Source: Candidatus Hermodarchaeota archaeon (lineage in GTDB: Archaea > Asgardarchaeota > Thorarchaeia > Thorarchaeales > Thorarchaeaceae). Taken from it: 64,000 nucleotides of DNA. The translations under genes and the position numbers were made by a program. This document shows, one piece after another, positions 1,269 to 38,928 of the stretch. The notes beneath the pieces are model-generated. The model worked only from the letters and a program-made list of their open reading frames with translations, made no database searches and was not told the DNA's origin. Each line of letters starts with the position of its first letter. The stretch's first letter is position 1. Location of the stretch: the NCBI GenBank assembly GCA_048885865.1, contig JBHLLF010000011.1, positions 1 through 64,000 of the forward strand, written 5' to 3'.

Positions 1269-1553
1269 TCAACCGCCTGCCACCAGTGGGAAAATCGATA
1301 TCTCATCTCCAGAGCTCAATTTCGTTTCAATTCCATTCAGGAACTTGATCTCCCTGCCATTGATTAGTATTGTAATATCGGGCTTAACCTTCTGATCCTC
1401 AGCAATCATTGTTTCCTTTATTCCCGAATCTAAGTAGAGTTCATCAAGGAGCTTTGATATTGTTGCACCTTTTTCCAGTTCCACGTCGATTGGCTCTTTC
1501 TTCCCTATGAGGTCTCGAAGTGTTGCATAGAACTTCACTGTGACTTTCATCAT
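1269..1553 (-). CDS. moaD: MoaD/ThiS/SAMP ubiquitin-like sulfur carrier
   Basis: MKVTVKFYATLRD...ILINGREI...GDEISIFPLVAGG with a C-terminal GG. Start trimmed to the ATG at 1553. Confidence 0.92.
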   Translation of the reverse strand: MMKVTVKFYATLRDLIGKKEPIDVELEKGATISKLLDELYLDSGIKETMIAEDQKVKPDITILINGREIKFLNGIETKLSSGDEISIFPLVAGG

Positions 1554-1632
1554 AGCTCCACTCTGAGTCTTCCAAGCATCAGGCTTATAAAACCGTACAA
1601 GGACCGGTTCAGAATTAGGGGTCAATCCAATC

Positions 1633-4600
1633 ATGTTTGGCTACATGGGCAAAATCCTGCGCATCAACCTGACAACATCCACAATAACAGAGGAATTCCC
1701 TGACGAGGATACTTTGAGGAAATATCTCGGTGGTGCTGGACTGGCAACAAAGATACTCTTTGAAGAAACGGAACGAGGCATTGATCCTCTAGGACCAGAA
1801 AACAAGCTGATCTTCATGACTGGCCCCTTGACAGGAACAACCTCGCCCAGCACAGGTCGCTATAGCGTAGTAACAAAGGCTCCACTCACCAATGGATGGG
1901 GACATGCCAATTCAGCGGGGTTCTGGGGGAGGGATTTCAAACGCTCCGGATTTGATGGGGTGATATTTGAGGGCAGAGCACCAAAGCCAGTCTATTTGCT
2001 GACAGAAGACGGGAAAGCTGAACTTGTAGACGCCTCAGAGATATGGGGGAAGAACACTTCAGAAACCACTAGGATACTCCGAGAGAAGCATGGCGAGAAG
2101 TTCAACGTCGCATGTATCGGTATTGCGGGGGAGAACTTGGTCAAGTATGCAGCTATCATGAATGATTGCGATGAGGAGAATTGGGGGCGTGCAGCAGGTC
2201 GTTGCGGTGTGGGTGCAGTGATGGGTTCAAAGAATCTCAAGGCAATTGCTTCCAAGGGAACCATGACAATCCCTATCGCTGAACCCGACACATACAAGGC
2301 AGAAGCCAAACAGAGATTCGACTGGGTGAACCAGAGCATCTTGAAGATGACACTCGAGGTCTATGGAACAGCTACAATGGTAGACTTGGTGAATGTCAAA
2401 GGGGGTATTCCAACACGGAATTGGCAGACAGGAGTCTTTGATAACGCAGAGCTAATCAATGGAACTGCAATTAACGACAACATATTGGTGAAGCGAAAGC
2501 CCTGCTTCGCATGTCCCATTCATTGCGGAAGGATAGCTGAGATCAAGGCGGGTCCATTCAAGAGTAAAGGAGAAGGACCAGAATATGAGTCACTTGCATC
2601 CCTTGGAACAATGTGTGGTGTTGACAATTTAGAGGCAATCACACTTGCACACTTCTTATGCAATGAATACGGTATTGATGTGATATCTGCAGGGAGCACT
2701 ATCGGATTTGCAATGGAGTGCTATCAGAGGGGCATTCTGAAGAACGAAGATGTGGATGGATTGGACTTCTCTTGGGGTAACGCTCAGCTAGTTGTCGACG
2801 TTATTCATAAGATTGGAAAGCGCGAAGGCATCGGTGACCTCCTGGCTGAAGGCACAAAGAGAATGGCGGAGAAACTTGGTCAAGGGTCCGAGCATTTCGC
2901 CATGCATGTCAAGGGACTCGAGCTGCCTGGCTATGATAGCCGTGCTGCAAAAGTAACTGGTCTCGCTTATGCTGTGGCCAACCGTGGTGGCGATCACATC
3001 ACTGCCTATATCGAAGGCCCAGCTTTCCTTGCTATGCCATTTATGATTGTGGAGGACGCAGATATCGGAGACCCCCTCCAAGAGATTCCTGAAACCGCGT
3101 TAGTTGTGAAGAACTTTGAGGACGCACTTGGGAATTTCGATGCGATCGGTGGGTGTAAATTCATGGGCATGGTTCTCACTGCCGAGGACTGGGCTGGACT
3201 GATGTCGGCTTTGATGGGTCTAGACATTACGCCGGAGGAGTTCCGTACCACAGGTGAGAGAATCTACAATTTGGAGCGAGCCTATATTCTGAGAGAAGGC
3301 TTTACTCGAGCCGATGACACATTACCGCCACGGTTGCTGGAAGACCCATTACCTGAAGGCCCCGCAGAGGGACATGTAGTGGATCTGGATGTTCTTCTTG
3401 ATGCGTACTACAAATACCGCGGGTGGGATGAGCAAGGCAGACCAACGATTGAGAAGCTTCAGGAACTTGGGCTGCAATGGCTTATAGATACAGTCCATGC
3501 AGATGCGGGCGAAACCCTAGAATTGATCAAACATAGAACTCACGTAGCTTCCACTGGCTCCAAGAAGAAAGCTGCTGAGTTGCGAACCAAGGAAGTGGTT
3601 GGAGAAAAGCCATGGCTCGAAAACTACCAGATAGGCCCATTCAAGCTCGAGCACTCTATGGCTCCTTATCCTGAGATGAATGTGTATAAGTTTCTTGAAG
3701 ACACAGCAGCAGAATTCCCAGATGTGATCGCATGCGAATATGCGGATGAGGAAATGACCTATCCCGAGTTGAAGGAGAAGGTGGACAGGCTTGCATCAGC
3801 TTTCGTGGCACTGGGTGTTAAGAAGGGCGATGCTGTTGCGACCGTTCTCCCCTCATGTCCTGAATTCATTATCGCAGACTATGCCGCCATGAAGATTGGT
3901 GCTATTCATGTACCTCTCAGTATTCTGCACAAGGCTGACGACCTGAGATATGAACTCAGTGAAAGCAAAGCGAAGATTGTGGTCTGCTCCTACAGGCGAA
4001 TCGAGCGTGTCAATGAGGTTAAACCTGATACCAGTGTGAAGACTGTCATCTACACACCGACCAAGCTATTCCCCGATTATCAGTATCCTGCCATGGAAGA
4101 CATTGATGATGAGAATTATCACCTCATGGATGACTTGATCCGGAATCATGAACCGCATACTGAAACTGTTGAAATTAATGCAAAGGAAGACATTGCTCTT
4201 CTGCCTTTTACAGGGGGTACCACAGGTCAACCCAAGGGAACGATGCTGACTCACTACAACATAACTACCAACGTGAGGCAGACCATGCATTGGATGATGG
4301 ATCCGCTCAAAGAGGGAATCATCGGGAAGAGCTCAGGTGTGATATGCGTACCTATCTTCCATGCATATGGCCACTGGGCGTTGCACTCCTGCATATCATG
4401 GGGACTCAAGATGTACTTGATGGACTCGAGGGACATTCCAAAGATTGTTGAAGTAATCAACCAGCATCGGCCATTTGTGGTGTTTGCAGTTCCGACTCAC
4501 TATATGCTCTTCTCAAAGATGGATATGATCAAGGGACAAATCTTCTATTTCTCAGGCGCGGCAGCGCTTCCCGCAGACCTCGCTGAGGAGTTCGAGGGGA

Positions 4601-5268
4601 AGGCGGGTGTGCCTATGGGCGAAGGTTATGGTGCAACCGAGACATCCGGGGTCGTCACAATAAACATCTCAGCACTTTCGAAGGTCACAGGCTTCATGGC
4701 GGAAACAAAAAGGGGAGTCGGAGTTCCCATCCCTGAAACTGAGATAAAGATTGTCGACCCTGATACTGGCCAGGAGCTACCTATTGGTCAACGTGGCGAG
4801 ATATGGATACGCGGGCCCCAAATCATGCGTGGATATTGGCCGACGCCAGGCAGTGGATTGAAGGAGGGCGGTTGGTTGCCGATGGGCGACGTTGTCGAAA
4901 TGGACGGAGATGGGTACTTCAAGATTGTTGACAGAATCAAGGACATGATTAACGTCTCCGGGAACAAGGTGTATAGCCGAGTAATTGATGACATCCTGCA
5001 TGAACACGAGGCAGTAGATGTCGCAGGTGTCATAGGCATCCCCGACCCGGAGAGACCAGGGAGCGAGAGAGTGAAGGCGTTCATCCAATTGAAGCCTGAA
5101 TATAGAGGAAAGATCTCTGACCAGGACATCATCGATTTCCTGAAGGGGAAAGTGAAGCCCTATGCGATACCAAAGTGGGTTGAGTTCAGAGATGAGCTAC
5201 CACTTACAGTTGTGATGAAGCTGTTCAAGAAGAAGCTAAGAGAAGAAGAGCTTGCTAAGCTTGGCTAG
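1633..5268 (+). CDS. Fusion of aldehyde:ferredoxin oxidoreductase (W/Mo-bis-pterin, 4Fe-4S) and long-chain fatty-acid--CoA ligase
   Basis: aa ~1-620 AOR: GYMGKILRINL, YLGGAGL, AAGRCGVGAVMGSKNLKAI, CFACPIHC, EGPEYE, DTLPPRLL, YYKYRGWD. aa ~660-1211 adenylate-forming ligase: FTGGTTGQPKG, GEGYGATE, MGD, DRIKDMINVSG and the terminal catalytic Lys (LPLTVVMKLFKKKLR). One uninterrupted ORF. Confidence 0.93.
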   Translation: MFGYMGKILRINLTTSTITEEFPDEDTLRKYLGGAGLATKILFEETERGIDPLGPENKLIFMTGPLTGTTSPSTGRYSVVTKAPLTNGWGHANSAGFWGRDFKRSGFDGVIFEGRAPKPVYLLTEDGKAELVDASEIWGKNTSETTRILREKHGEKFNVACIGIAGENLVKYAAIMNDCDEENWGRAAGRCGVGAVMGSKNLKAIASKGTMTIPIAEPDTYKAEAKQRFDWVNQSILKMTLEVYGTATMVDLVNVKGGIPTRNWQTGVFDNAELINGTAINDNILVKRKPCFACPIHCGRIAEIKAGPFKSKGEGPEYESLASLGTMCGVDNLEAITLAHFLCNEYGIDVISAGSTIGFAMECYQRGILKNEDVDGLDFSWGNAQLVVDVIHKIGKREGIGDLLAEGTKRMAEKLGQGSEHFAMHVKGLELPGYDSRAAKVTGLAYAVANRGGDHITAYIEGPAFLAMPFMIVEDADIGDPLQEIPETALVVKNFEDALGNFDAIGGCKFMGMVLTAEDWAGLMSALMGLDITPEEFRTTGERIYNLERAYILREGFTRADDTLPPRLLEDPLPEGPAEGHVVDLDVLLDAYYKYRGWDEQGRPTIEKLQELGLQWLIDTVHADAGETLELIKHRTHVASTGSKKKAAELRTKEVVGEKPWLENYQIGPFKLEHSMAPYPEMNVYKFLEDTAAEFPDVIACEYADEEMTYPELKEKVDRLASAFVALGVKKGDAVATVLPSCPEFIIADYAAMKIGAIHVPLSILHKADDLRYELSESKAKIVVCSYRRIERVNEVKPDTSVKTVIYTPTKLFPDYQYPAMEDIDDENYHLMDDLIRNHEPHTETVEINAKEDIALLPFTGGTTGQPKGTMLTHYNITTNVRQTMHWMMDPLKEGIIGKSSGVICVPIFHAYGHWALHSCISWGLKMYLMDSRDIPKIVEVINQHRPFVVFAVPTHYMLFSKMDMIKGQIFYFSGAAALPADLAEEFEGKAGVPMGEGYGATETSGVVTINISALSKVTGFMAETKRGVGVPIPETEIKIVDPDTGQELPIGQRGEIWIRGPQIMRGYWPTPGSGLKEGGWLPMGDVVEMDGDGYFKIVDRIKDMINVSGNKVYSRVIDDILHEHEAVDVAGVIGIPDPERPGSERVKAFIQLKPEYRGKISDQDIIDFLKGKVKPYAIPKWVEFRDELPLTVVMKLFKKKLREEELAKLG

Positions 5269-5370
5269 CTAGTCCCTCCCAATCCTCTTTACACACGCTA
5301 AGCAAAAGCGGTATATAGTCAACACCTCAAGTTTTCTGGCATGGTATTTCGTGCTGGGTAGGTCGAGAAG

Positions 5371-6951
5371 ATGTCCAGTAACCTCCGCATCATCATGTTC
5401 TTCTTCCTACTACTTGTCATAAACTCAGCACCTTGTATTAATTCGACCCCTTCAATGAAATCTACCGAAGCAGATAATTCACAAATTCTTGAGTCCGCGG
5501 GGGATATATTCACCTCCATATGTGGAGCAGAGGTCAGAATTAGCAAAACTCCCGAAGCCTTTGAAGGATATAATCTCTTTGTCCTTGCAAAAACAGACAA
5601 AGAAACTCTTCAGCGCAATTTGTGGATGCTGATTGTTGATTTGAACGGTGAGGTCTTGCTTGAAGAGTACCTTGGAGTTGACCTATGGATTTCAGACTGT
5701 GCTGCAGAGTTCATAAATCCAGCAACCATCCTCCTTGGAAAGGACTTCTCAGCGGCAATATACAATCTCACTGATGAGTCGACAACCATTCTGCCGTTTG
5801 GAGGGCATCATGATTATGAGTATAATCCTCTTGACGACACCTTCTTTGCATTACAAAGGTATGAATTAGAGATTGATGAGATAATGTACCAGTATGACAC
5901 CGTCGTTGAATTAGATAGAAATGGGAACGTTGTCTGGTCATTCGATACAGCTTCACTGATTAATGTGAACCAATGGTGTCCGTATCAAGATTATGAATTT
6001 AGTCTGCCTGACATCACACACATGAACACGGTTTACTTCGACGCATATGATGATTCAATATACCTAATGTCCCGAAACACCAATACTTTCTGGAAAATCA
6101 ACCATTCAACTGGCGATGTGGTATGGGCGCTTGGAGAATTCGGTGACTTCACACTATATGATCAACGGGGGATACAAAGAAACAATCTGTTCTTTCATGC
6201 TCATGCTGTCGAAAGAGTAGATGATGAAACCTTCATTCTGTTTGACAACGACTATCATAATCAGACTGATGAGTTTAATGAAGTGTCAAGGATTGTCGAG
6301 ATTTCAATTGATGAGGACACAATGACGGCTAACACTACTTGGGAATGGTCCTCGGAAGAATACTACTCATTCTTGTTTGGTGACGCTGATAGATTGCCGA
6401 ATGGGAATAGACTGGGTGTCTTCGGAATTGCAGGATTTCCCAACTCTGAGTATGGAGCAAGGATAGTTGAGGTCAATGAAGAACATGAGATTGTGTGGGA
6501 GATGGCCTTCGCAAACGACGAAACATATTGGTATATGATCTATAGGAATGAACGATTTCAATTTCATCCAATTCTTCAGGTCCTAGATGTAGAGAATTCG
6601 GATTCTGAGGGTAGCATTACTATCAATTTTGGAGCTTATTTCAATTATCGTCCCAAAAGGGACTTACCAGGATTCTATAGCCTCTATATTGATGATGTCT
6701 TAATCGGGGAGGGAGGAGTTATTTTCGACCGATTTTGGCGGCCAGCTATTGTTTCTTGCTCTGTCCCAAATCCAGGAACAGGACACCCTAATGTAACCCT
6801 AATCGTTTGGAATGGAAATGGGGATTCAGCAAGAATAACAGCAGAATTCGGTGTGACCAGCATCGCTGATAATGCATTACTACTCTTCGCAGTTGGGATA
6901 GTAGGAGTTATTGGACTCATCATTCTCTGGAAACATCGGAATTCGAAATGA
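5371..6951 (+). CDS. Arylsulfotransferase (ASST)-family beta-propeller, signal peptide plus C-terminal TM anchor
   Basis: GHHDYEY, DITHMNT, LMSRNTN, FHAHAVE, FDND and GDADRLPNGNRL motifs; hydrophobic N- and C-termini. Confidence 0.82.
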   Translation: MSSNLRIIMFFFLLLVINSAPCINSTPSMKSTEADNSQILESAGDIFTSICGAEVRISKTPEAFEGYNLFVLAKTDKETLQRNLWMLIVDLNGEVLLEEYLGVDLWISDCAAEFINPATILLGKDFSAAIYNLTDESTTILPFGGHHDYEYNPLDDTFFALQRYELEIDEIMYQYDTVVELDRNGNVVWSFDTASLINVNQWCPYQDYEFSLPDITHMNTVYFDAYDDSIYLMSRNTNTFWKINHSTGDVVWALGEFGDFTLYDQRGIQRNNLFFHAHAVERVDDETFILFDNDYHNQTDEFNEVSRIVEISIDEDTMTANTTWEWSSEEYYSFLFGDADRLPNGNRLGVFGIAGFPNSEYGARIVEVNEEHEIVWEMAFANDETYWYMIYRNERFQFHPILQVLDVENSDSEGSITINFGAYFNYRPKRDLPGFYSLYIDDVLIGEGGVIFDRFWRPAIVSCSVPNPGTGHPNVTLIVWNGNGDSARITAEFGVTSIADNALLLFAVGIVGVIGLIILWKHRNSK

Positions 6952-7132
6952 ACCAGGGATTTCATTGAGAAGACAAGCTTTGATGGTATTCCACCGACGC
7001 CAAAGGAAGCAGCAAATACTGTGAAGACGGCTAGGAAACTATCTGACGCCTTGACTTGCTAGGAAAGCAAAAGACATACCGAAGAGTAAATCACTAAGAA
7101 GTGGGGGACCTGCAGCTAACGGAGTAGAAACA

Positions 7133-7840
7133 TTGACGGATTTGCTGGATTGGGAGAGCCTAGAATGGCTATCAAGTGCAAGAAGCCTAGTGAAATGGAT
7201 GAGCCAGAGATCTCCAGAGGAGAGCCTCATGCTTTTCCTACGTCACTCTCATCGTGATGAGATTCCAGACCACTCAGTCCAATTTAGCACGGGACTTACA
7301 GAGATAGGTAAGCGGATGTCATATGAAATGGGAAAGAAACTACCTACTAGCAGACCAATTCGGATCTTCTTCAGCTTCGTTCCAAGATGCTATGATACAG
7401 CAGAGGCACTTGCCAAGGGGCTCAGAGAGAACGGAGCAAACATCGTTGAGTTTGAGGCCATTCCTATACTAGTGATGCCTGAATTTGATGACGAAGCAGT
7501 ATGGGATAATCTCCAGCCTGATGGGATGAATGTGACTCAATTCGTGAACAGCTGGGCCGATGGGGAATTTGGCAATATGATTGAGTCTTTTGAGTCGTAT
7601 AGAGGTAGACTGTTGGAAGCAACAATTGAGAGGCTAAGGAGTGAGAAGGAGTCGGTCATGCACATTCATGTGACTCATGATCTAGCTCTGATGTCAATCA
7701 AGCGAATTCTGTTGCAGCGAACCATAGGAAATCAAGATAGAGAGCCCTATCAAGGAGGTATCTGCATCTCTATCAATAGAGATGGAGTCCCACACCTTTA
7801 CAATTCAGAAGAGGTAACACGCCTTTCACCAATTGGCTAG
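7133..7840 (+). CDS. Histidine phosphatase (phosphoglycerate mutase-like) family protein
   Basis: LFLRHS, LTEIG, S..PRCYDTA and HVTHD motifs. Confidence 0.85.
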   Translation: MTDLLDWESLEWLSSARSLVKWMSQRSPEESLMLFLRHSHRDEIPDHSVQFSTGLTEIGKRMSYEMGKKLPTSRPIRIFFSFVPRCYDTAEALAKGLRENGANIVEFEAIPILVMPEFDDEAVWDNLQPDGMNVTQFVNSWADGEFGNMIESFESYRGRLLEATIERLRSEKESVMHIHVTHDLALMSIKRILLQRTIGNQDREPYQGGICISINRDGVPHLYNSEEVTRLSPIG

Positions 7841-7880
7841 AAGTCTTCACAGTCCTTTGCTTAGGAATCCGAATGATTTA

Positions 7881-7933
7881 TTAACGAGTAGTTAAAGTGT
7901 TTAGGTTAATTCTGTTAAGGTATTCGCATTAAC
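7881..7933. promoter_or_regulatory. Cluster of TTAAC/GTTAA half-sites, putative operator of the downstream HTH regulator
   Basis: Palindrome TTAAC-GAGTA-GTTAA (7881-7895) plus GTTAA at 7905 and 7914 and TTAAC at 7929, just upstream of ATG 7938. Confidence 0.45.
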
Positions 7934-7937
7934 TCGG

Positions 7938-8420
7938 ATGGGCCAAGAAATGTTCAGCTACCTTCGATATCCCACCAAGCAACAGGGCCTTATCTGGCTC
8001 AGGCGCCGCCAGAAGGAAAGACCCTCAGAAATCGCCAAGGATCTGAAGGTATCAAGACCATTTGTCACCATGGCCCAGAAGACAGCAGAGGAACGAATCG
8101 AGCAACTTCTTCAGCATTCTGCATCAGTCAATCGAGTAAAGATAGAGCATCTAAGTCCGAAATATGGCATCGCAAAAGGCTTCTGCCATGCCTATGATAC
8201 AGATACATACATCGTCTATTCTCCCAGAATCGGTCTTCAGAACTGGTATGTCCACAAGGGCGATTGCGGAACTTGCGAAATGGAAGACAAATGCACCAAG
8301 ACACTTCGTACATTAGCTGAAGAGTGGGAAATCCCTCTTCCAGATGACAGGCCTCCAACAGAACTCGGCGTATACCTTTTTGATGTAATTGGGAGGCGAC
8401 TCAAATGGAATCAGACATAG
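7938..8420 (+). CDS. HTH transcriptional regulator with C-terminal Cys/His metal-binding motif
   Basis: RPSEIAKDLKVSRPFVTM HTH; HKGDCGTCEMEDKC. Overlaps the next gene. Confidence 0.7.
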   Translation: MGQEMFSYLRYPTKQQGLIWLRRRQKERPSEIAKDLKVSRPFVTMAQKTAEERIEQLLQHSASVNRVKIEHLSPKYGIAKGFCHAYDTDTYIVYSPRIGLQNWYVHKGDCGTCEMEDKCTKTLRTLAEEWEIPLPDDRPPTELGVYLFDVIGRRLKWNQT

Positions 8421-9739
8421 AAAGAGTATGTCCACATCCTCCTAAGCCTAAGAAGTTCATGAGCCATCTAAAGGGCTATAGAACACTCCTCATGGTTATG
8501 AGCCTAACAGTCATCTTGACGTCAGTTAGTTTCATGCCCCTAATGACTCCTAGTTCTCCTTTGGTGGGTTCCATCAGATGGGAGGTTCCGGTTCAAGGAG
8601 ACGTATTCCTTTTGCGAATGGACGAGAATGGCACTCTCTTATGGAACATGTCTTATGGTGGCCCTTTGAATGAGTGGCCAAATTCTGTTGTAGAGGTGTC
8701 AACAGGTGGATTTGCAATCTTAAGCGGATTTGGAAAGCACGACAATAGAACTGCATTGATCACGCGCATTGATACCAGAGGCGAGGTGATTTGGAACAGG
8801 ACCTATAGTGACATATACATTCATCCAAGAAACTTCAGAAACTTCTTTTTCGAATTGATGGATGGAGGTTTTGCTATCTTCGATGGTAATATTCTGGTAA
8901 CTGATGACATGGGGCAACTTGCAAGAACGCACCTCACAAACGAGAGTCCTTGGGGATATCCGATTAGCATTGTAGAATGTAGTAGCGGGGGATTTGCCTA
9001 TGCCTACGAATATGGATACATGGGTTCATACACAGCTATTCAGCGGATTGATACCAGCAATAACACGCTTTGGTATACCGAGTTTATTTGCCCCAATGCG
9101 TATGCGTGTCATAGTAATGTCGTTGAAGACTCAAATGGCGGCTTTGTTTTCTGGATGGGAGGAGCATACGGGAATAGAGGAGATAATGGAGGTAATCTGA
9201 CGCATATAGACAGTCAAGGAAACAGAACTTGGTGGCGTTATATTCCTCCGTGGAATGAATATTACCAGAAGGGGTTTGATATCATCAAATGCAGCGAGGG
9301 GGGCTTTCTGCTATACTCTATCCACGGCTGCCGACGCGTTGATAATTGGGGACGAACTGAATGGAAAAAGGAAATACCATCATGGAAAGCCATAGAATTG
9401 ACTTCAGGAAGGTTTGTCCTGCTTGAACCTAATTTGGTCAATGGTGAATTGTGGAACACTGTAGGCAGCTTCGCTCTGAGTTGTTTAGATTCAAATGGAA
9501 ATCATCTATGGCGTCAGACTTTGGAAATGCCATCTCACCAGGAGTTTGACTTGGTAGCCTGTGCCGATGGCGGATTCGCTGTAGCAGTGTCAGCTGAGAG
9601 CTCCTTTCATTCGATTGAAATCAATGAAATTCCAGGAGATAGACCAAGACCTCTTGAGGTTGCTGTGATTCCTGGCATGAGCATAATACTAGCAGCCGTC
9701 GGTATGGCACTCAGAAAAATGCGTCAGCTTGCAAAATGA
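8405..9739 (+). CDS. Secreted, membrane-anchored beta-propeller repeat protein
   Basis: Repeats of D..G..LW...Y and EC.DGGFA; N-terminal hydrophobic segment and C-terminal TM with a basic tail. Confidence 0.72.
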   Translation: MESDIERVCPHPPKPKKFMSHLKGYRTLLMVMSLTVILTSVSFMPLMTPSSPLVGSIRWEVPVQGDVFLLRMDENGTLLWNMSYGGPLNEWPNSVVEVSTGGFAILSGFGKHDNRTALITRIDTRGEVIWNRTYSDIYIHPRNFRNFFFELMDGGFAIFDGNILVTDDMGQLARTHLTNESPWGYPISIVECSSGGFAYAYEYGYMGSYTAIQRIDTSNNTLWYTEFICPNAYACHSNVVEDSNGGFVFWMGGAYGNRGDNGGNLTHIDSQGNRTWWRYIPPWNEYYQKGFDIIKCSEGGFLLYSIHGCRRVDNWGRTEWKKEIPSWKAIELTSGRFVLLEPNLVNGELWNTVGSFALSCLDSNGNHLWRQTLEMPSHQEFDLVACADGGFAVAVSAESSFHSIEINEIPGDRPRPLEVAVIPGMSIILAAVGMALRKMRQLAK

Positions 9740-9758
9740 TACCTGACAGAAATGGAAT

Positions 9759-11423
9759 GTGATTGAGGTAAATGAAATGATTAGATATCAGAAGAAATTA
9801 ATCTACTTCTCAATGGTCTATCTTACGCTATCTCTGACCTTGTCACTTTTGTCTCTCGATGTTAGTTCGATGAGTGCAATCTATGCGAACCTATCTCAAG
9901 ATGGACAGACTTTTTCAATAGTCGGAAATCACAGCCCCGGTTATTTGGGCACCCACTTTGATGGAGTCGGTGATGTCAGCGGCGATGGAGTAGATGATTT
10001 CATCATAGGAGAAACCCGGCATCCAGGAACAGGAAAAGCGTACCTATTCTATGGGCGTCTTGATGCCGCTTGGACTAATCTTACACTGTCGGATGCGCAA
10101 GCATCGTTTGTCGGTGAACATAATGAAGATTCCTTCGGTAGATGGATTGCAGGTCTCGGAGATGCTAATGGAGATGGCTATAATGACTTTGCAATATCTG
10201 CAATGTTCAACGATGAAGCAGGCGATATGGCAGGCAAGGTCTATGTCTTCTTTGGGTCAGAAGCTGGTTGGGCAGTGGATACCCTGGCTACTCAGGCCAA
10301 TGTGTCCATTGTTGGTGAAGCAGCCAACGATCGTTTGGGACATGGAGTCTATGGCATAGGAGACACAAATGGCGATGGGTATGATGACATCCTTATCTCG
10401 GGGATGCTGAATGATGAAGGAGGCCTAGATGCAGGACAGGTCTACTTATTCCTAGGACGCCCTCAAAATCTGTGGTTGGAATCCTACTCAGCTGCAGATG
10501 CAAACGCTTCGTGGATTGGTACTCCCGGGTCGGGCTTATCGCTGGATGCTTCTGGAGCTGGCGATGTAAATAATGATGGATTTGCAGACTTCGCAGTTGG
10601 CGCATTTCCAAGGATTAACGGTGCTGCTCAGAGGAAGGTATACCTCATATTTGGGTCTGATAAGGCCAACTGGTCAATGGATCAACCGATTTCAACTTCA
10701 AATGCCTCATTTGTCGGTCCTAGTGACACAGGCGTTGAAACTTTGGCAGTATCTGCGAATTGGATCGCAGGATCTGGAGATGTCAACAACGATGGATTTG
10801 ATGATTTGATAGTTGGTGCCTTTGAGGAGAATGTAGAAGGTGCCCTGTCTGGGCAGACATATCTCTTCTTTGGACGCTCAACTGAGCACTGGACTCATAA
10901 TGTAACATTTTCCAATGCAAACGCATCTTTTCTGGGCATCACAGCTGGCGATTGGGCAGGATGGGAAGTCGATTGCGTTGGCGATGTGAATGGTGACTCA
11001 TACGCAGACATTTTGATTAGCGCTCCGACCAGAATATCTGTCCCATCACAGTCTCTAAGCGCAGGACACGTGTACCTAATTTTGGGCGGACCAAATGACA
11101 AATGGGAAATGGGCACAACTCTGGCCAACGCTGATTCAATCCTCACGTCAGAGCAGACCCATGCTGGCTATGGTTTTCATGTACAGGGAATTGGAGATGT
11201 CAATAATGATGATATTAGCGACTTCGCTATTGGTGCACCAGATTTCGACGATAGTTCCTATAATGTTGGAAAGATCTACCTTGTTTTGAGTTCCGCTACA
11301 ACTGCATCTACAACGACGAATACACCGCCTCCACCTCCCCCAGAACCCCTTGTAATATTGATAATTGCTGGCGCAATGGTTGTGGTTGCAGTTATTGCAC
11401 TAGTACGGAAGAAGAGTCCTTAG
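9759..11423 (+). CDS. FG-GAP (integrin-alpha-type beta-propeller) surface protein with C-terminal TM
   Basis: Seven GD[VAT][NS][GN]D.[YFVI].D Ca-binding repeats, each followed by an SA/GA and G.VYL.[FL]G-type motif; Thr/Pro stalk, TM, RKK tail. Confidence 0.9.
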   Translation: MIEVNEMIRYQKKLIYFSMVYLTLSLTLSLLSLDVSSMSAIYANLSQDGQTFSIVGNHSPGYLGTHFDGVGDVSGDGVDDFIIGETRHPGTGKAYLFYGRLDAAWTNLTLSDAQASFVGEHNEDSFGRWIAGLGDANGDGYNDFAISAMFNDEAGDMAGKVYVFFGSEAGWAVDTLATQANVSIVGEAANDRLGHGVYGIGDTNGDGYDDILISGMLNDEGGLDAGQVYLFLGRPQNLWLESYSAADANASWIGTPGSGLSLDASGAGDVNNDGFADFAVGAFPRINGAAQRKVYLIFGSDKANWSMDQPISTSNASFVGPSDTGVETLAVSANWIAGSGDVNNDGFDDLIVGAFEENVEGALSGQTYLFFGRSTEHWTHNVTFSNANASFLGITAGDWAGWEVDCVGDVNGDSYADILISAPTRISVPSQSLSAGHVYLILGGPNDKWEMGTTLANADSILTSEQTHAGYGFHVQGIGDVNNDDISDFAIGAPDFDDSSYNVGKIYLVLSSATTASTTTNTPPPPPPEPLVILIIAGAMVVVAVIALVRKKSP

Positions 11424-11500: not shown

Positions 11501-11932
11501 GTGACCGGAGGAGATGCAGAAAGCTCGAATAATGCACCTTCAAATAATGAGATGATGAAGTTACTTGGCAGTCAAGGTGGGAGGATGTGGAAGATCATCA
11601 CCAAATACCTCAGAGAGAACTACGAATTCGAACCTGTGAGGGAGAATGATGAGCTTGAAGCCACTATCCGCTACCGCAGAAGTGGCAAGACTCTAATCAC
11701 CTTCTATCCAAAGAAGGAAGAGCTCACAGTTCTCATAATCTTTGGTAAGAAAGAGGTCGAGAAATTCGAGAACTCGAAGGATGAATTCAGCCCCGAAATT
11801 GTGGAGCTCTTTGAGAACACGAAACAGTATCATGATGGAAAATGGTTGCACATCAAGGTCCCACCCTTCGAGGACTTTGAGGATATCAGGAAGCTGCTAC
11901 ACATCAAGAGAAAGCCGAAGAAAGCAACATGA
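11501..11932 (+). CDS. DUF3788 family protein
   Basis: YRRSGKTLITFYP, VLIIFGKKE and KQYHDGKWL motifs. Confidence 0.75.
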   Translation: MTGGDAESSNNAPSNNEMMKLLGSQGGRMWKIITKYLRENYEFEPVRENDELEATIRYRRSGKTLITFYPKKEELTVLIIFGKKEVEKFENSKDEFSPEIVELFENTKQYHDGKWLHIKVPPFEDFEDIRKLLHIKRKPKKAT

Positions 11933-12512: not shown

Positions 12513-13280
12513 ATGAAACTCACAAGAACAATGGAAGAGATAGAAGAACGTTCTAAGAAGTATGCTGAGGGTTATGTGCTCAGCAATGCCACTATGATTA
12601 TCGCCATGTTCACCACGACTGAGGACGCAATCCGGCAGGTCATCCCGGCACCGCTTGAGCCAGGGCCAATCCTTATGGCATCAGCCTATGTGGCTGAATT
12701 CCACGAGTCGAACTTCTGCCCTCCCTATAATGAAGCTGCAGTCTTCCTACCAGTGCAGTATAAAGGAGAAACGGGGAGTTACTGTATATCAATGCCAGTG
12801 GACAATGATATTGCGATGCTAGGGGGAAGAGAGATTTATGGATATCCAAAGAAGATTGCAGACTCCATCACAGTTGAGAGAGCAGGCAACAACGCAAAGG
12901 GAGTTTGTATCAGACGAGGAGTCCCCATTGTAGAGATTGAAGTGACGCTTACTGATGTTATGGAGGAGCGGTCTCCACAGGGACCTCATTTTCTGGTCAA
13001 GTCCATTTTGGACGAGAGAGGTCTTGGTGTCGGTATGAAGCCCTTGCTAATAAGACAGCAGAATAGAACAGAGCTTGTCAAACTGGAGATTGGTGAGGGT
13101 AGTGTGAGGTTCCCTGAATCAAAGTATGATCCATTGCATCAGATTCCAATAGTCGATGTGATGCTAGTGTCCTATACAGAGGGAGCAACGGTGACTATGC
13201 CATTTGGAGAGATAGTGGAGGAACTGGAACCTGATGAGTATGCTCCATATCATTTCATCAAGTACGATTGGGATCCATAG
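12513..13280 (+). CDS. Acetoacetate decarboxylase-like family protein
   Basis: IPAPLEP, PYNEAA and GGREIYGYPKK (Schiff-base Lys). Confidence 0.9.
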   Translation: MKLTRTMEEIEERSKKYAEGYVLSNATMIIAMFTTTEDAIRQVIPAPLEPGPILMASAYVAEFHESNFCPPYNEAAVFLPVQYKGETGSYCISMPVDNDIAMLGGREIYGYPKKIADSITVERAGNNAKGVCIRRGVPIVEIEVTLTDVMEERSPQGPHFLVKSILDERGLGVGMKPLLIRQQNRTELVKLEIGEGSVRFPESKYDPLHQIPIVDVMLVSYTEGATVTMPFGEIVEELEPDEYAPYHFIKYDWDP

Positions 13281-13316: not shown

Positions 13317-14282
13317 TCATCCAGCCAATTCAGATGATAGAGTTGAAAGTGACTCCATCTGTTCAGATGTAAGCGAGACGCGCATGGCACCAGCATTCTG
13401 CTCTGCTTGGTAGGGCTTACTGGCTCCCGGAATAGCTACGACCTTGTCCCCATGATAGTTGACTGTCCAACTCAGGGCTACTTGAGCAGCAGTAGCTTCA
13501 TGCTCTCGAGCAATTGCCTCAAGCTCCTCTACTAGCGGTCTACTCTTTTCGATCTTCCCTCTAAGCCTTGAACGCCGAAACCGAGGCATGCTGCTAAACA
13601 ACTCCGGATTGCTGTGCAGTTTCCCTGTGAGGACTCCCATACCAAGGGGAGTGTACGCGGTAATTGTCACATCCAATTCTCTAGCAGCATCAAGCACGCC
13701 ATTATGTTCGACATTTCTATGTAGCAGACTGAACTGCACCTGATTTGTAGCAAGATGAATCCCTCTTTCAGCCAGAGCCTCGTGAGCAGAAGCCATCTTC
13801 TCCTCGGAAAAGTTGCTCACTCCTACGGCCTGCACCAACCCAGCGTCAACAAGATCCGCCATGGCATTCATCTGTGCTTTGACCGATGACCTAGAATATG
13901 GCTGATGGACTAGATACAAGTCAATTGGATACGGGGCGAGTCGATTGGTGCTCTTCTCAGCCGCCTTTCGGATGCTACCAGCACTCTTCAGTACTGGCAT
14001 CCATTTGGTTGTGACAATCACATCTCCAGGAGATTTCCCCGCGGAAGCAAGACCATGAGCCACAGCTTTCTCAGAGGCCCCTCCGCCGTAGACCTCAGCC
14101 GTATCAATCCAGTTCATCCCATTATCAAGGGCAAGCTGCACAATCTCGTCCATACAGTCAGGAGCAATAGGAGCAAGGAAGAATCTGAAGAATCCACTAC
14201 CTCCAGCAAATTGCATAGCTCCTAATCCAATTGGAAAAACTTCAAGGTCTGTCTTTCCAAGCCTACGTTTCTCAATTGCCAT
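13317..14282 (-). CDS. Aldo/keto reductase
   Basis: RRLGKTDLEV..IGLGAM, IDTAEVYG, TTK, IDLYLVHQP, VGVSNFS and AIPGAS motifs. Confidence 0.95.
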   Translation of the reverse strand: MAIEKRRLGKTDLEVFPIGLGAMQFAGGSGFFRFFLAPIAPDCMDEIVQLALDNGMNWIDTAEVYGGGASEKAVAHGLASAGKSPGDVIVTTKWMPVLKSAGSIRKAAEKSTNRLAPYPIDLYLVHQPYSRSSVKAQMNAMADLVDAGLVQAVGVSNFSEEKMASAHEALAERGIHLATNQVQFSLLHRNVEHNGVLDAARELDVTITAYTPLGMGVLTGKLHSNPELFSSMPRFRRSRLRGKIEKSRPLVEELEAIAREHEATAAQVALSWTVNYHGDKVVAIPGASKPYQAEQNAGAMRVSLTSEQMESLSTLSSELAG

Positions 14283-14431
14283 TTTTAACAGACTCTCATT
14301 CTCAACCTGTGCCTTTTAGTTGCTCGGATGTGGCCACATATCCGGGAAAACCGGAAATCTAATAGTACCCATTGATTCCCAGCTGTATAACCCGAAGAAC
14401 AGACAGATTCGGATTCAGGTTGGATAGCGCA

Positions 14432-16006
14432 ATGTCTAGTAAAGAGAGGCTCCTTTGGCATCGGCGGCTACTGCTCATTCTCTTGCTGATCATTCTCATC
14501 CAACCAGCAGCTCCAGCTATGGGTGAAATACAGCAAGCTCCATCCTTTCATGTAGCACAGATCATGCGTGGAGAAGTTGAAGTGACAAAGACTCAGGCAG
14601 CGTTCGAGGGCTATAACGCATTTGTACTCAGAGAACGAGATTTAGAAAATCGTCAGAACAACCAAACCCTGATAATTTGTGACATGGATGGAAATGTTCA
14701 CTATGAGCGCATTCTTACCAACAGCAGTGTCTACGAACTGGCAGACCTGTCAATGGATTTCGTAAGTCCCACGACTCTTCTGGTTGGATACCCATTCAAT
14801 GTGGCTCTTGTAAACCTCTACACCGGTACGACAAGATACCTCAATTGTTATGGACATCACGAATATGAGTACAATCCAAACAACGATACTGTATTCACCT
14901 TCAAATACAACCAGATAGTGATTGATAACGCAACATGTCTTTTCGACTTAATACACGAGTATGACCTCAATGGCAATCTAGTCTGGTCGCTGGATGTTAG
15001 TGAGTTCATAACACCTGAAATGTGGTGTCCTTACGGCGACCTTTTTGGCGGCTATCCGGACATCACCCATTCCAATACTCTGTTCTACGATGCAGATGAG
15101 GATATGATCTACTATAATGCAAGGAACGTGAATACATTCTACAAGATTGATCATAAGACTGGAGAAGTCATCTGGGGTTTGGGTGAATATGGAAATTTCA
15201 CAATGTACGATTCATTCGGTGTCGAAGTTGATCACTTATTCTTCCATCCACATTCTCTGGAGAGGGTAGATGACAATACATTCATCCTCTTTGACAATGA
15301 CCATCACAATCAGAATTTCGAAGGGAACCACAAGTCACGAATGATTGAGATTACAATTGATGAGGATACAATGGAAGCGCATTTGACTTGGGCGTGGAGA
15401 GGGACTGACATACATTGGTCGTTCCTTTGGGGAGATGCTGACAGATTGCCTAATGGAAACCGACTAGGAGTGTTTGGTGCAGCATCGCGACCAGGCTATG
15501 AGCACGGCGCTCATCTAATTGAGGTCACTGAAGAGGGAGATATTGCCTGGCAGTTTACATTTAGAACCAATGAGTTGTATAGATATGGAGTATACAGAAT
15601 GGAACGCTTTCACTATGCTCCAATCCTGCTAAGTCCCACACATCTTCATTTTGAGCCAGAAGAAGAAGTGATTCTTCAATGGCAGGCGTTCTACAATTAC
15701 AGACCTAGAAAGACAGTGGAGGGAAACTACACTTTTAGAAATGGCACAAACCAACTGGATTCTGGCACCTTCCCTTATGACAGATTCTGGAGACCCGCTC
15801 TGCTATCTTTCAATCTTGGAGTTCTTGAGCTTGGTGAACACGAATTTACATTGGAGATTGAAAATGATATCGGGCAGAAGACGAATGACACAGTGATTGT
15901 TGATGTATCCGTCTTGGAGGTCCCATTTCCACTCCCGATATTGGGTGCGTCCATCCTTATCATTGGAATTATTGCTGTCATCGTCGTATTCATGAAACGA
16001 AGTTGA
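14432..16006 (+). CDS. Arylsulfotransferase (ASST)-family protein, paralog of 5371-6951, TM-anchored
   Basis: GHHEYEY, WCPY, DITHSNT, FFHPHSLE and GDADRLPNGNRLGVFG motifs; C-terminal TM. Confidence 0.82.
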   Translation: MSSKERLLWHRRLLLILLLIILIQPAAPAMGEIQQAPSFHVAQIMRGEVEVTKTQAAFEGYNAFVLRERDLENRQNNQTLIICDMDGNVHYERILTNSSVYELADLSMDFVSPTTLLVGYPFNVALVNLYTGTTRYLNCYGHHEYEYNPNNDTVFTFKYNQIVIDNATCLFDLIHEYDLNGNLVWSLDVSEFITPEMWCPYGDLFGGYPDITHSNTLFYDADEDMIYYNARNVNTFYKIDHKTGEVIWGLGEYGNFTMYDSFGVEVDHLFFHPHSLERVDDNTFILFDNDHHNQNFEGNHKSRMIEITIDEDTMEAHLTWAWRGTDIHWSFLWGDADRLPNGNRLGVFGAASRPGYEHGAHLIEVTEEGDIAWQFTFRTNELYRYGVYRMERFHYAPILLSPTHLHFEPEEEVILQWQAFYNYRPRKTVEGNYTFRNGTNQLDSGTFPYDRFWRPALLSFNLGVLELGEHEFTLEIENDIGQKTNDTVIVDVSVLEVPFPLPILGASILIIGIIAVIVVFMKRS

Positions 16007-37455: not shown

Positions 37456-38865
37456 TCAGTTTTCGATCAGACTTCTCAGAATCTCCTCTGCTCTATCATG
37501 TATCTTCTTGATGGCTTCACTATCAGCGTATCCATGATAGTAGTTCAAGGTCAAAGTCAATCTTCCATTCATTGTAGCAATGCCGAGTACAATCTCCATC
37601 TTCATGCCAGCTGATGGAGTGAAGAATGCTCTCTGAACTTCAATACCAGAGATCTTGTCAGGGATGCCTAGCTTGCCTAAGTTAGTGCTGATGATATCAG
37701 GTGCTCTGCTTCCAATTCTCTCAAGATATTTCGTAACCATTCCGTCCTTCTTACTCGCATATACGGACAGCTTTGAGTATCTACTCTGATGAGGTTCGAT
37801 TTGGTCACCGTAGAAAGCAACTGACATGGCATCAACCAGAGTCTGGTCAAGATAGTGATGACTGATAACAGTCTCGAAGACATTATTGTTTTCCAAGTCC
37901 TTGCTTACAGCTTTATGGTAGACGCGGACATTGTCCCATAATGACGCATTCTCCTTGTACTTGAATTCCATGAAGGAGCCGCCTGCGTAGAATCCAACTG
38001 CATCACTGCAGTCAATGCGGAGTCGCTTTCTAGCATCCACTGCTGTGGCAACCTTCGCCTTTCCATCGTATGGTCCAACCGCGTCAATCCTTGCTTTTAC
38101 AAGTGCAATTAGAAGTGCGGAGTTGAGGGTAACATCATTCTCTCTGGAAACCTCAATTAATCGTTTGGTCTCAGTCTTATCAAACTCGATAATCTCGATG
38201 CCATAGGATGTGTTCTTCCAAGAAGCCTCCCAGATGTTCACCAGGTCTTCCTCATCAAATAGGACCTTTTCTCTCTGCCAATTCTTGTTGATTCTACCCA
38301 CAAGGCCCCTTTTGACACGCCCCCACTCTGAACCTTTGGGGAATATATCCAAGGTCTGCGGCGGCACATCTAGAAACGCCGGTGATTTCCTTTTGGGATC
38401 GTTGAGATGTAGAAGCACCTCTCTAAGTGCAAACTCTAGAGACCTACCATCACTGATTGTATGATGACAAAATACCATTAGCTCTGAAGTGTTGTTCCCC
38501 TTCACGAGAATGAAGCGGGTCAACGGACCTTTGGAGGGTCTCAGCGGAATAGCATGTTCAAGGTTTAATACATCTATCCAGTGACTATCAGACTCACGTG
38601 GGTACACTTTCACAGGGATCTTTGCAGCCCCCTCAGTCGTAGAGTCATGGACTCCAGCTTCATCCCACTCAATCCGCACTCCGAACTGAGGATAGGTTAT
38701 GAGCATTTTCTCAACAGCCGTTTCCAGCGCCTGTTCTGACACCTGGCCTTTGAGTCTTAGTACCAATGAGATGTGTGCATTGGGACCAAAAAGGAATCGA
38801 CGTTCCTGCCCTGTAATGATTCGCTTGTATGGTTTACTCTCTTCAGTAGTAATCATTTTCTTCAC
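37456..38865 (-). CDS. Stand-alone condensation-domain / PapA5- or alcohol-acyltransferase-like CoA-dependent acyltransferase
   Basis: Catalytic CHHTISDG (HHxxxDG), VTLNSAL, AVDARKR and STNLG motifs. Confidence 0.85.
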   Translation of the reverse strand: MKKMITTEESKPYKRIITGQERRFLFGPNAHISLVLRLKGQVSEQALETAVEKMLITYPQFGVRIEWDEAGVHDSTTEGAAKIPVKVYPRESDSHWIDVLNLEHAIPLRPSKGPLTRFILVKGNNTSELMVFCHHTISDGRSLEFALREVLLHLNDPKRKSPAFLDVPPQTLDIFPKGSEWGRVKRGLVGRINKNWQREKVLFDEEDLVNIWEASWKNTSYGIEIIEFDKTETKRLIEVSRENDVTLNSALLIALVKARIDAVGPYDGKAKVATAVDARKRLRIDCSDAVGFYAGGSFMEFKYKENASLWDNVRVYHKAVSKDLENNNVFETVISHHYLDQTLVDAMSVAFYGDQIEPHQSRYSKLSVYASKKDGMVTKYLERIGSRAPDIISTNLGKLGIPDKISGIEVQRAFFTPSAGMKMEIVLGIATMNGRLTLTLNYYHGYADSEAIKKIHDRAEEILRSLIEN

Positions 38866-38874
38866 GCAATATTA

Positions 38875-38905
38875 TATTTCGTAACTTTTAAATATTTACG
38901 AAATA
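38875..38905. promoter_or_regulatory. Inverted-repeat operator between the divergent acyltransferase and regulator
   Basis: TATTTCGTAA-N11-TTACGAAATA, with a TTTTAAA box in the spacer. Confidence 0.7.
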
Positions 38906-38928
38906 AGCAATCTCAAGAGACTGTAGAC

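Follow-up and report, generated by a model that had tools for sequence, protein, structure and literature searches.

A gene joining an aldehyde:ferredoxin oxidoreductase to an acyl-CoA ligase in Asgard archaea, probably a conserved pair of enzymes in fused form

The stretch of DNA analyzed here (the window) comprises 64,000 nucleotides, positions 1 to 64,000 of contig JBHLLF010000011.1 in the assembly GCA_048885865.1 of a Candidatus Hermodarchaeota archaeon. Close to its left end, a gene (P0001) was identified whose product joins an aldehyde:ferredoxin oxidoreductase (AOR) and an AMP-forming acyl-coenzyme A (acyl-CoA) ligase in one polypeptide. The frame does not contain any internal stop codon, and the Pfam domains AFOR_N (2.8e-78), AFOR_C (8.4e-140), AMP-binding (2.5e-88) and AMP-binding_C (1.7e-11) were all detected far over their curated cut-offs. 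Three small genes for a MoaD/ThiS-like protein, an SCP2-like protein and a protein with a predicted SCP2 fold lie next to it on the opposite strand. The coordinates of these genes and of the elements discussed below are compiled in Table 1.

Table 1. Position of the fusion gene, its parts and the adjacent small genes within the window
Feature	Position	Strand	Remarks
AOR::acyl-CoA ligase fusion gene (P0001)	1633..5268	+	single open frame, 1211 aa, four Pfam domains
AOR half	1648..3474	+	AFOR_N residues 6-210, AFOR_C residues 237-614
AOR surface helix, predicted ligase contact patch	2320..2400	+	residues 230-256, DWVNQSILKMTLEV...
Loop after the catalytic His	3013..3072	+	residues 461-480, 8-residue insertion; 465-471 in the predicted interface
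Inter-domain linker	3493..3597	+	residues ~621-655, low complexity, unconserved, predicted disordered
ANL-type AMP-forming ligase half	3694..5211	+	AMP-binding residues 688-1069, AMP-binding_C residues 1118-1193
Ligase motifs (from sequence)			A3 859-869, A4 908-914, A5 996-1003, D1086, D1100/R1101/K1103, K1196
Second SCP2-fold protein (predicted), U136, 136 aa	318..728	-	AF2 model and Foldseek
SCP2-like protein, 151 aa	748..1203	-	orthologues in 43/46 loci
MoaD/ThiS-like small protein	1269..1634	-	Pfam ThiS 2.3e-12, 47.7 bits (cut-off 22.5)
Divergent intergenic region, MoaD-like / fusion genes	1551..1632	.	TATA-like TTATAAAA at 1585-1592

A long open reading frame (ORF) like this one might be an artefact, with two genes merged by a sequencing error or in a chimeric contig, and the window stems from a metagenome-assembled genome (MAG) of 87 % completeness and 5.3 % contamination. 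However, a near-length protein search retrieved full-length fused homologues forming more than 33 separate clusters at 90 % identity. These proteins have 1204-1226 residues and the same four domains, are 79-92 % identical to the window protein and originate from NCBI, JGI, ENA and Logan assemblies; the named ones are labelled Thorarchaeota. Four more fused clusters of Hodarchaeota type, one of them labelled Hodarchaeota, showed 63-65 % identity. In six-frame searches of genomes of the phylum, the fused frame was uninterrupted by stops in at least 17 species-level genomes, and it is present in several genera of the Thor family. Moreover, the linkers of the fused copies differ in length by multiples of three, so that the frame is always kept. 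Since the same fusion recurs in more than 33 independent assemblies, an assembly artefact is excluded for practical purposes, its probability being close to nil, and the fusion is confirmed as one real gene. The initial annotation, made from the letters of the window alone, had proposed a complete AOR fused to a complete ligase, which is borne out by the domains, the catalytic residues described below and the independent clusters. The linker was found where it had been placed (~3490-3600). It comprises 30-40 residues, its sequence varies between and within lineages, and its predicted local distance difference test (pLDDT) values of 27-33 in the AF2 model predict disorder.

The AOR half was compared to Pfam profiles and to proteins of solved structure. 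AFOR_N and AFOR_C scored 262.7 and 466.7 bits (cut-offs 29.8 and 27), covering positions 1-199 of 199 and 16-385 of 385 of the respective profile. The best solved relative is the AOR of Pyrococcus furiosus (1aor), which was matched over residues 1-614 with an E value of 1.9e-163. Bit scores were highest for AORs (1aor 549, 9mqx 523, 9g7j 497, 8c0z 437) and lower for other subfamilies (FOR 381, WOR5 294, BamB 224). To assess conservation, 37 fused proteins were aligned with split AORs and split ligases, 20 of each. The four cysteines of the [4Fe-4S] cluster (Cys291/294/298/508, corresponding to C288, C291, C295 and C494 in P. furiosus) were invariant in the 57 orthologue rows, while the pterin/Mg residues R76, N93, R186, D349 and D503 (R76, N93, R182, D343, D489) and the catalytic residues E319 and H455 (E313, H448) were near-invariant. 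Each of these residues is conserved in at least 56 of the 56-57 rows that have a residue at the respective position, in fused and split proteins alike. The motifs that had been recognized initially, CFACPIHC (291-298), GGCKF with Cys508 and EGPEYES (314-320), are all in place. A peculiarity of the clade is Asn344 instead of Asp338 of the P. furiosus enzyme, but the same asparagine occurs in the solved AOR 9mqx. By its sequence, the N-terminal half is a bona fide member of the AOR family, and it is probably an AOR-proper-type tungsto- or molybdo-pterin/[4Fe-4S] aldehyde:ferredoxin oxidoreductase, presumably with tungsten rather than molybdenum. The AOR of P. furiosus (1AOR), that of Clostridium autoethanogenum (9G7J), the WOR-type enzyme 9MQX and AorB of Aromatoleum aromaticum (8C0Z) can be aligned to it from end to end (E values from 1.9e-163 to 1e-129) and have the four cysteines, the pterin/Mg ligands and the catalytic Glu/His pair in common with it. 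What separates the fusion from these characterized enzymes, which are stand-alone subunits of ~600 residues or subunits of AorABC-type complexes, is the C-terminal ligase that none of them possesses. In addition, the fusion clade has a conserved surface helix (DWVNQSxLKMTLEV) and an insertion of eight residues in the loop behind the catalytic histidine.

The ligase half revealed scores of 296.9 bits for AMP-binding and 45.3 bits for AMP-binding_C. Near-invariant in the 57 rows are the P-loop FTGGTTGxPKG (FTGGTTGQPKG at 859-869 in the window protein), GYGATE at 998-1003, the A7 aspartate D1086, the A8 hinge (D1100, R1101, K1103, G1110) and the A10 lysine K1196. Hence, the P-loop and the catalytic lysine reported in the initial annotation are confirmed. 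The A10 motif reads T-x-x-M-K throughout the clade in place of T-x-S-G-K. In a search of PDB sequences, the C-terminal 570 residues matched FadD-1 of Archaeoglobus fulgidus and feruloyl- and coumarate-CoA ligases. Stand-alone ANL ligases such as A. fulgidus FadD-1 (3G7S), feruloyl-CoA synthetase (8WEV) and the 4-coumarate:CoA ligases have the same fold and the motifs A3, A4, A5, A7, A8 and A10, but they are only about 30-40 % related to the fusion ligase, whose N-terminus is tethered to the AOR and whose A10 motif differs. Motifs and domain matches identify this half as a member of the ANL superfamily, for which the label 'acyl-CoA ligase' is safe. A complete AMP-forming ligase had thus been described correctly at the outset; the attribute 'long-chain' did not hold. 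All NCBIfam equivalog and subfamily models remained under their cut-offs, the best being PRK06187 with 371.5 (cut-off 476), and the FadD model PRK08974 scored 260 against a cut-off of 884, so that the label 'long-chain FadD' was rejected. Outside the Asgard clade, the identity of related ligases in the ligase-half library search falls to about 45 %. Two of the relatives, P0128 and P0122 (44-54 % identity), have no adjoining AOR gene; therefore, some related ligases are unpartnered.

To understand the origin of the fusion, 400 genomes of the phylum were surveyed, in which 46 informative loci with locally called ORFs were obtained. Both halves have close orthologues in four coded families, among them Thor (f1), Hod (f18) and a third, large one (f9). 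Most genomes possessing both halves encode them by two separate genes. With few exceptions, the ligase gene of a split locus directly succeeds the AOR gene in the same orientation; the two overlap or are up to about 200 nt apart. Such separate but adjacent AOR and ligase genes exist in three further Asgard families and in bacteria. In one genome (G020), the AOR ends with ...WLIDQIY and a stop codon, and the ligase start is situated 21 nt downstream. Because the split genes abut at this point, the linker of the fusion occupies the site of the former stop codon, spacer and ligase N-terminus. A protein from outside the Asgard clade, P0124 (about 45 % identity), is encoded in an operon of SCP2, AOR and ligase genes, and some of the proteins that are about 50 % identical to it bear the labels Dehalococcoidia and Pseudomonadota. 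On one strand of a Dehalococcoidia MAG, genes for SCP2, an Fe-alcohol dehydrogenase (Fe-ADH), AOR and the ligase follow each other, an order which fits the sequence alcohol, aldehyde, acid and acyl-CoA. At the Pseudomonadota locus, the AOR stop codon overlaps the ligase start. Within the limits of the searches, the AOR/ligase unit appears to be broadly distributed among anaerobes and the fused form to be restricted to two Asgard lineages. No fused forms beyond Thor and Hod were found among near-length matches down to ~40 % identity, a word-seeded search that does not prove absence. According to the initial annotation, close relatives that all carry two genes would have spoken against the coupling. 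Many close relatives do carry two genes, yet these are adjacent and co-oriented; therefore, coupling is favoured rather than disfavoured by them.

Separate maximum-likelihood trees, a check that had been suggested initially, were calculated for the AOR halves, with two unpartnered AORs as the root, and for the ligase halves. The trees were congruent, and both require at least two changes between the fused and the split state. The fused Thor proteins form a clade of 14 sequences (support 100/99), whose sisters are split forms of the same family and of f9. The Hod clade comprises four fused sequences (98/97) and is nested among split Hod forms. A single fused clade was rejected by the approximately unbiased (AU) test (delta lnL 117, p-AU 5.6e-6), and the linkers of Thor and Hod proteins have unrelated sequences. 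As split forms occur in bacteria and at the base of each lineage, the straightforward reading is that the genes were fused independently at least twice, once in the Thor and once in the Hod lineage.

Some loci of the survey deviate from these arrangements. In G205, a frame of 1276 aa looked like a third fusion but was rejected since ORF calling revealed two genes 213 nt apart (L033). At L009 (G004:C1, 4223-7117, minus strand), the orthologue is N-terminally truncated to 964 aa, its AOR half beginning only near residue 245; this genome belongs to the same genus and consists of a single 2.6-Mb contig, and the truncation might reflect a rearrangement, pseudogene formation or an error in scaffolding. 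In the Hod family, ~1 kb separates the AOR and ligase genes at L041 (G110, 4001-8582) and L042 (G107, 3291-7860). In G399, AOR and SCP2 are encoded on one contig and the ligase on another.

The question whether the two halves touch each other was addressed by structure predictions. The full-length AF2 model had a pLDDT of 86, falling to about 30 in the linker, and a predicted template modelling score (pTM) of 0.81. Rigid halves of 620 and 550 residues that are placed freely would be expected to yield about 0.55; therefore, the value suggests a confident packing of the domains. A complex prediction of AOR residues 211-620 with ligase residues 656-1205 scored 0.81, while the best of three controls scored 0.00. 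Among reference cases, 58 of 80 solved complexes and 2 of 110 mismatched pairs attained such a score, counts which are rough, a custom alignment having been used. The docking runs agreed in at least 91 % of the contacts with pLDDT values of at least 88 for the partners. In PDB sequence searches, AORs and ANL ligases were found solely as separate entries (the AcsA/AcuA complex of the adjacent accession 9g79 is unrelated), and for this reason it is unlikely that the docking merely reproduces a known structure. The predicted contacts of the AOR comprise the helix 230-256, the loop 465-471, which directly succeeds the catalytic His455, and V514, a few residues behind Cys508. Those of the ligase comprise residues 668-670, 891-901, 945-948, 967-971, 992-994 and 1015-1021, all of which belong to the N-terminal domain, around the stretch from motif A3 to motif A5. 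Thus, the ligase is predicted to dock with its N-terminal domain on domains 2/3 of the AOR. The predicted contact patch is conserved. In orthologues including split-only rows, the interface columns exceeded the remaining ones in conservation (AOR 0.88 versus 0.80, ligase 0.81 versus 0.75); in AORs without a ligase partner, these columns showed the lowest conservation (0.30 versus 0.55). The eight-residue insertion in the 465-480 loop is common to the partnered AORs of Asgard archaea and of two bacterial loci (L056, L059), and the unpartnered L045 and L046 lack it. Taken together, the models and the conserved patch argue well, though circumstantially, for a specific complex of the two enzymes in both the fused and the split state.

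Clustering of all neighbouring ORFs over the 46 loci disclosed the companions of the pair. The most constant one is the gene of the SCP2-like protein, whose alignments (A1/A4) contain 15-31 invariant columns. The copy in the window itself has no Pfam match at E <= 0.001, but orthologues match Pfam SCP2 (L007 with 9e-5; L012, L013 and the P0124 locus weakly). In the Dehalococcoidia operon, the corresponding position is taken by a protein of 136 aa that matches SCP2 as well. U136 is present at 21 of the 46 loci, mostly in Thor. Its AF2 model (pLDDT 89) retrieved SCP2-fold proteins as all of the top 45 Foldseek matches in the PDB, and seven of 18 family members showed weak Pfam SCP2 matches, none of them significant. 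On this fold search and these weak matches only, U136 is predicted to be a second SCP2-fold protein. Comparison of the two small families by hhalign (A1 versus A2, A4 versus A5) detected no similarity (probability 0.2-0.4). The region upstream of U136 is unassembled, the window beginning at base 1 of the contig (C11). The MoaD-like gene adjoins the AOR/ligase genes at 28 of the 46 loci. Its product terminates with ...PLVAGG, i.e. with a Gly-Gly end, and probably starts at Met28/29 (~nt 1550), which would give ~93 residues as in its relatives. The adjacent intergenic region with the TATA-like element is a candidate promoter region. An Fe-ADH gene accompanies the pair at 13 of the 46 loci (Hod, f9, f33) and at none in Thor. 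In the genome analyzed here, the unit consists of the fusion, two SCP2 genes and the MoaD gene only; the other neighbours of the fusion (arylsulfotransferase-like, histidine phosphatase, FG-GAP) are unrelated.

From this evidence it is probable that the fusion protein is a bifunctional enzyme converting hydrophobic aldehydes via the acid to acyl-CoA, and that it represents a conserved unit of two enzymes which here are fused. The AOR half would oxidize a poorly soluble aldehyde to the free carboxylic acid, reducing ferredoxin. The docked ligase would then adenylate the acid and transfer it to CoA, releasing acyl-CoA, AMP and pyrophosphate (PPi), possibly by direct hand-off between the halves. 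Transport of the poorly soluble substrate or product is the most likely role of the one or two SCP2-fold proteins, whose presence speaks for a lipid-like cargo. The MoaD-like protein most likely serves the maturation of the pterin cofactor, and in relatives, Fe-ADH may supply the aldehyde from an alcohol. The acyl-CoA would enter beta-oxidation, as had been assumed in the initial annotation. Six acyl-CoA dehydrogenase loci, three strong 3-hydroxyacyl-CoA dehydrogenase loci and five to six thiolase loci exist elsewhere in the genome, but no gene of this pathway lies beside the fusion. The coupling of AOR and ligase itself, the core of the initial proposal, is strongly backed by the conserved adjacency, the two independent fusions, the controlled docking and the lipid-carrier context.

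Several observations weigh against this interpretation. Pfam scans of 30 ORFs of the window detected neither beta-oxidation nor ADH or ferredoxin genes near the fusion, and the nearest Fe-ADH homologue of this genome is encoded on another contig and is only 34 % identical. The ligase stays under all NCBIfam equivalog cut-offs, and an aromatic rather than aliphatic substrate is possible because the nearest solved ligase relatives include feruloyl- and coumarate-CoA ligases. The docking was performed with an AOR lacking domain 1, and the conservation and the complex prediction are not fully independent because they rely on the same alignment. Furthermore, AOR catalysis is reversible, and on formal grounds the gene order and the context fit the opposite direction equally.

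In this opposite direction, the ligase would be reversed (acyl-CoA, AMP and PPi yielding acid, ATP and CoA) or free acid would be taken up, the AOR would reduce the acid with low-potential ferredoxin, and an alcohol dehydrogenase would pull the reaction toward the alcohol. Such a unit might be an electron sink or a route to fatty or isoprenoid alcohols. It draws support from C. autoethanogenum, in which acid reduction by AOR (9g7j, a close solved relative) is physiologically validated (PMC12727526), and from the A. aromaticum AOR, which reduces acids at a low rate (PMC6365974). The Fe-ADH adjacency is direction-neutral, and an acyltransferase of the PapA5/wax-synthase-like type, which uses alcohols and acyl-CoA, is encoded 32 kb off in the window. 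On the other hand, acid-reducing organisms do not need a CoA ligase beside the AOR, AMP-forming ligases normally run toward acyl-CoA and rarely in reverse, and the potential of the acid/aldehyde couple (about -580 mV) requires strongly reduced ferredoxin. In addition, the adenylation and thioester motifs including the A8 hinge and the A10 lysine are all conserved, as expected for forward catalysis, but not exclusively for it. Reductive operation is therefore regarded as unlikely, albeit as the foremost competitor of the oxidative route. Less probable still is that the halves are catalytically independent. In that case, fusion would merely ensure co-expression and a 1:1 stoichiometry on a flexible tether, and the acid would join the bulk pool instead of being handed over. 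The unconserved, predictedly disordered linker would suit this assumption, as would the many lineages with separate genes and the gene of ~1 kb intervening at L041 and L042. It contrasts with the docking score and the reproducible contacts, with the pTM of the full-length model, with the clade-specific patch and loop insertion at the predicted interface, which split and bacterial partnered AORs also possess, and with the fact that the fusion arose twice.

It has also been considered that the protein might act as a ferredoxin- and ATP-driven carboxylic acid reductase (CAR) of a new type, in which the docked pterin centre reduces the acyl-adenylate or the acyl-CoA directly to the aldehyde. In this way, a tungsten analogue of CAR devoid of carrier domains would circumvent the highly unfavourable free-acid potential, and it may feed the synthesis of fatty or isoprenoid alcohols via the neighbouring Fe-ADH and SCP2 carriers. 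Known CARs, composed of adenylation, carrier and NADPH-reductase domains, resemble the fusion in combining ANL adenylation and acid/aldehyde interconversion in one polypeptide. However, the Pfam scan of the fusion (E <= 0.01) detected four families only, and neither a phosphopantetheine carrier domain (PP-binding) nor an NAD(P)H reductase domain (NAD_binding_4). Since both domains are missing, the fusion is not a CAR; unlike in CAR, its redox module is a pterin/[4Fe-4S] enzyme located N-terminal to the ligase, and the motifs for CoA thioester formation are all kept. The analogy to CAR, already raised as an alternative in the initial annotation, did not gain any positive support, and direct reduction of the activated acid is very improbable.

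The oxidative route to acyl-CoA, which we prefer, has parallels in systems built from unfused enzymes. In eukaryotes, fatty alcohols and phytol are degraded by an alcohol dehydrogenase, a fatty aldehyde dehydrogenase and an acyl-CoA synthetase, with SCP2 presenting the branched acyl-CoA. The reaction logic and the SCP2-fold carrier are the same, but the eukaryotic aldehyde dehydrogenase is NAD-dependent, there is no fusion, and different families are involved, so that no homology is implied. In anaerobes, routes of unfused ADH, AOR and acyl-CoA synthetase have been proposed with the same chemistry, from alcohol to aldehyde, to acid (ferredoxin-linked) and to acyl-CoA, for instance for alkane-oxidizing archaea (PMC10322722); acetogens employ an ADH/AOR pair (PMC12727526). 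In these routes, the link between AOR and ligase is hypothetical and derived from gene inventories, while here it is fixed by operon, fusion and a predicted interface. The aorABCDE operon of A. aromaticum contains, with the MoaD-like genes aorD and aorE, putative factors for the maturation of the tungsten cofactor (PMC6365974), which parallel the MoaD/ThiS-like gene with its Gly-Gly end beside the fusion. It is because of this AorD/AorE precedent that a role of the MoaD-like protein in pterin synthesis is suggested (PMC6365974). Electron-transfer subunits corresponding to AorA/AorC are not encoded beside the fusion, and the A. aromaticum system is without a ligase or SCP2 partner.

Each half is a clear member of a known family. 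The open-access literature yielded no account of an AOR-ligase fusion or of an operon of SCP2, AOR and ligase genes; a 2025 review devoted to obligately tungsten-dependent enzymes uses neither 'fusion' nor 'fused' (PMC12096430), and in public databases the fused proteins are deposited under generic names. Together with the widespread SCP2/ADH/AOR/ligase operon of Asgard archaea and anaerobic bacteria, the fusion points to an unstudied oxygen-free route that would convert lipid-like alcohols and aldehydes to acyl-CoA and yield low-potential ferredoxin. For alkane-oxidizing archaea, the conversion of alkyl-coenzyme M to acyl-CoA is unresolved (PMC10322722). The fusion may offer an expressible candidate for the step of anaerobic hydrocarbon and lipid degradation that leads from aldehyde-level intermediates to acyl-CoA (PMC10322722), and it extends what little is known of lipid metabolism in the archaeal relatives of eukaryotes. 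Provided that hand-over of the acid is real, the enzyme would be attractive for biocatalytic use in both directions, and the predicted interface names the residues to be mutated.

Further observations concern the surroundings of the gene. In a related Thor contig, a DUF3788 gene directly follows the fusion (L010, 11696-12139), whereas in the window it is located at 11501-11932, behind a block of ~6 kb (5371-11423) comprising genes for an arylsulfotransferase-like protein, a histidine phosphatase, two unknowns and an FG-GAP repeat protein. Since fusion and DUF3788 are contiguous in L010, this block looks inserted. Two genes of the arylsulfotransferase (ASST) family occur within 10 kb, both on the plus strand (5371-6951, 2e-30; 14372-16006, 9e-20), and an acetoacetate-decarboxylase-family gene (12513-13280, plus strand) is convergent with an aldo/keto reductase gene (13317-14282, minus strand). 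In G020, a MaoC-type double hot-dog enoyl-CoA hydratase is encoded directly downstream of the split ligase (L008, 2448-3317, minus strand), and a gene for an HMG-CoA-reductase N-terminal domain adjoins the Hod fusions (L012, 2-331; L013, 6382-6765). Both neighbours hint at acyl-CoA or isoprenoid metabolism but are unconserved. PapA5-like enzymes form esters from acyl-CoA and alcohols. The stand-alone condensation-domain/PapA5-like acyltransferase of the window (PF00668, 3e-11; PapA_C), situated beside a MarR-like regulator (37456-38865, minus strand / 38773-40059, plus strand), is odd for an archaeon and could be related to alcohol/acyl-CoA metabolism.

A different natural fusion was encountered among the next-nearest AOR relatives (P0053-P0100, 43-48 % identity). 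In these proteins of ~810-860 aa, AFOR_N and AFOR_C are followed by a domain of the 3-hexulose-6-phosphate synthase (HPS)/orotidine monophosphate (OMP) decarboxylase type (PF00215). They occur in MAGs of Methanomethylicia, Nezhaarchaeales, Hodarchaeota and Heimdallarchaeota, and this fusion could link the release of formaldehyde by HPS to ferredoxin-linked oxidation.

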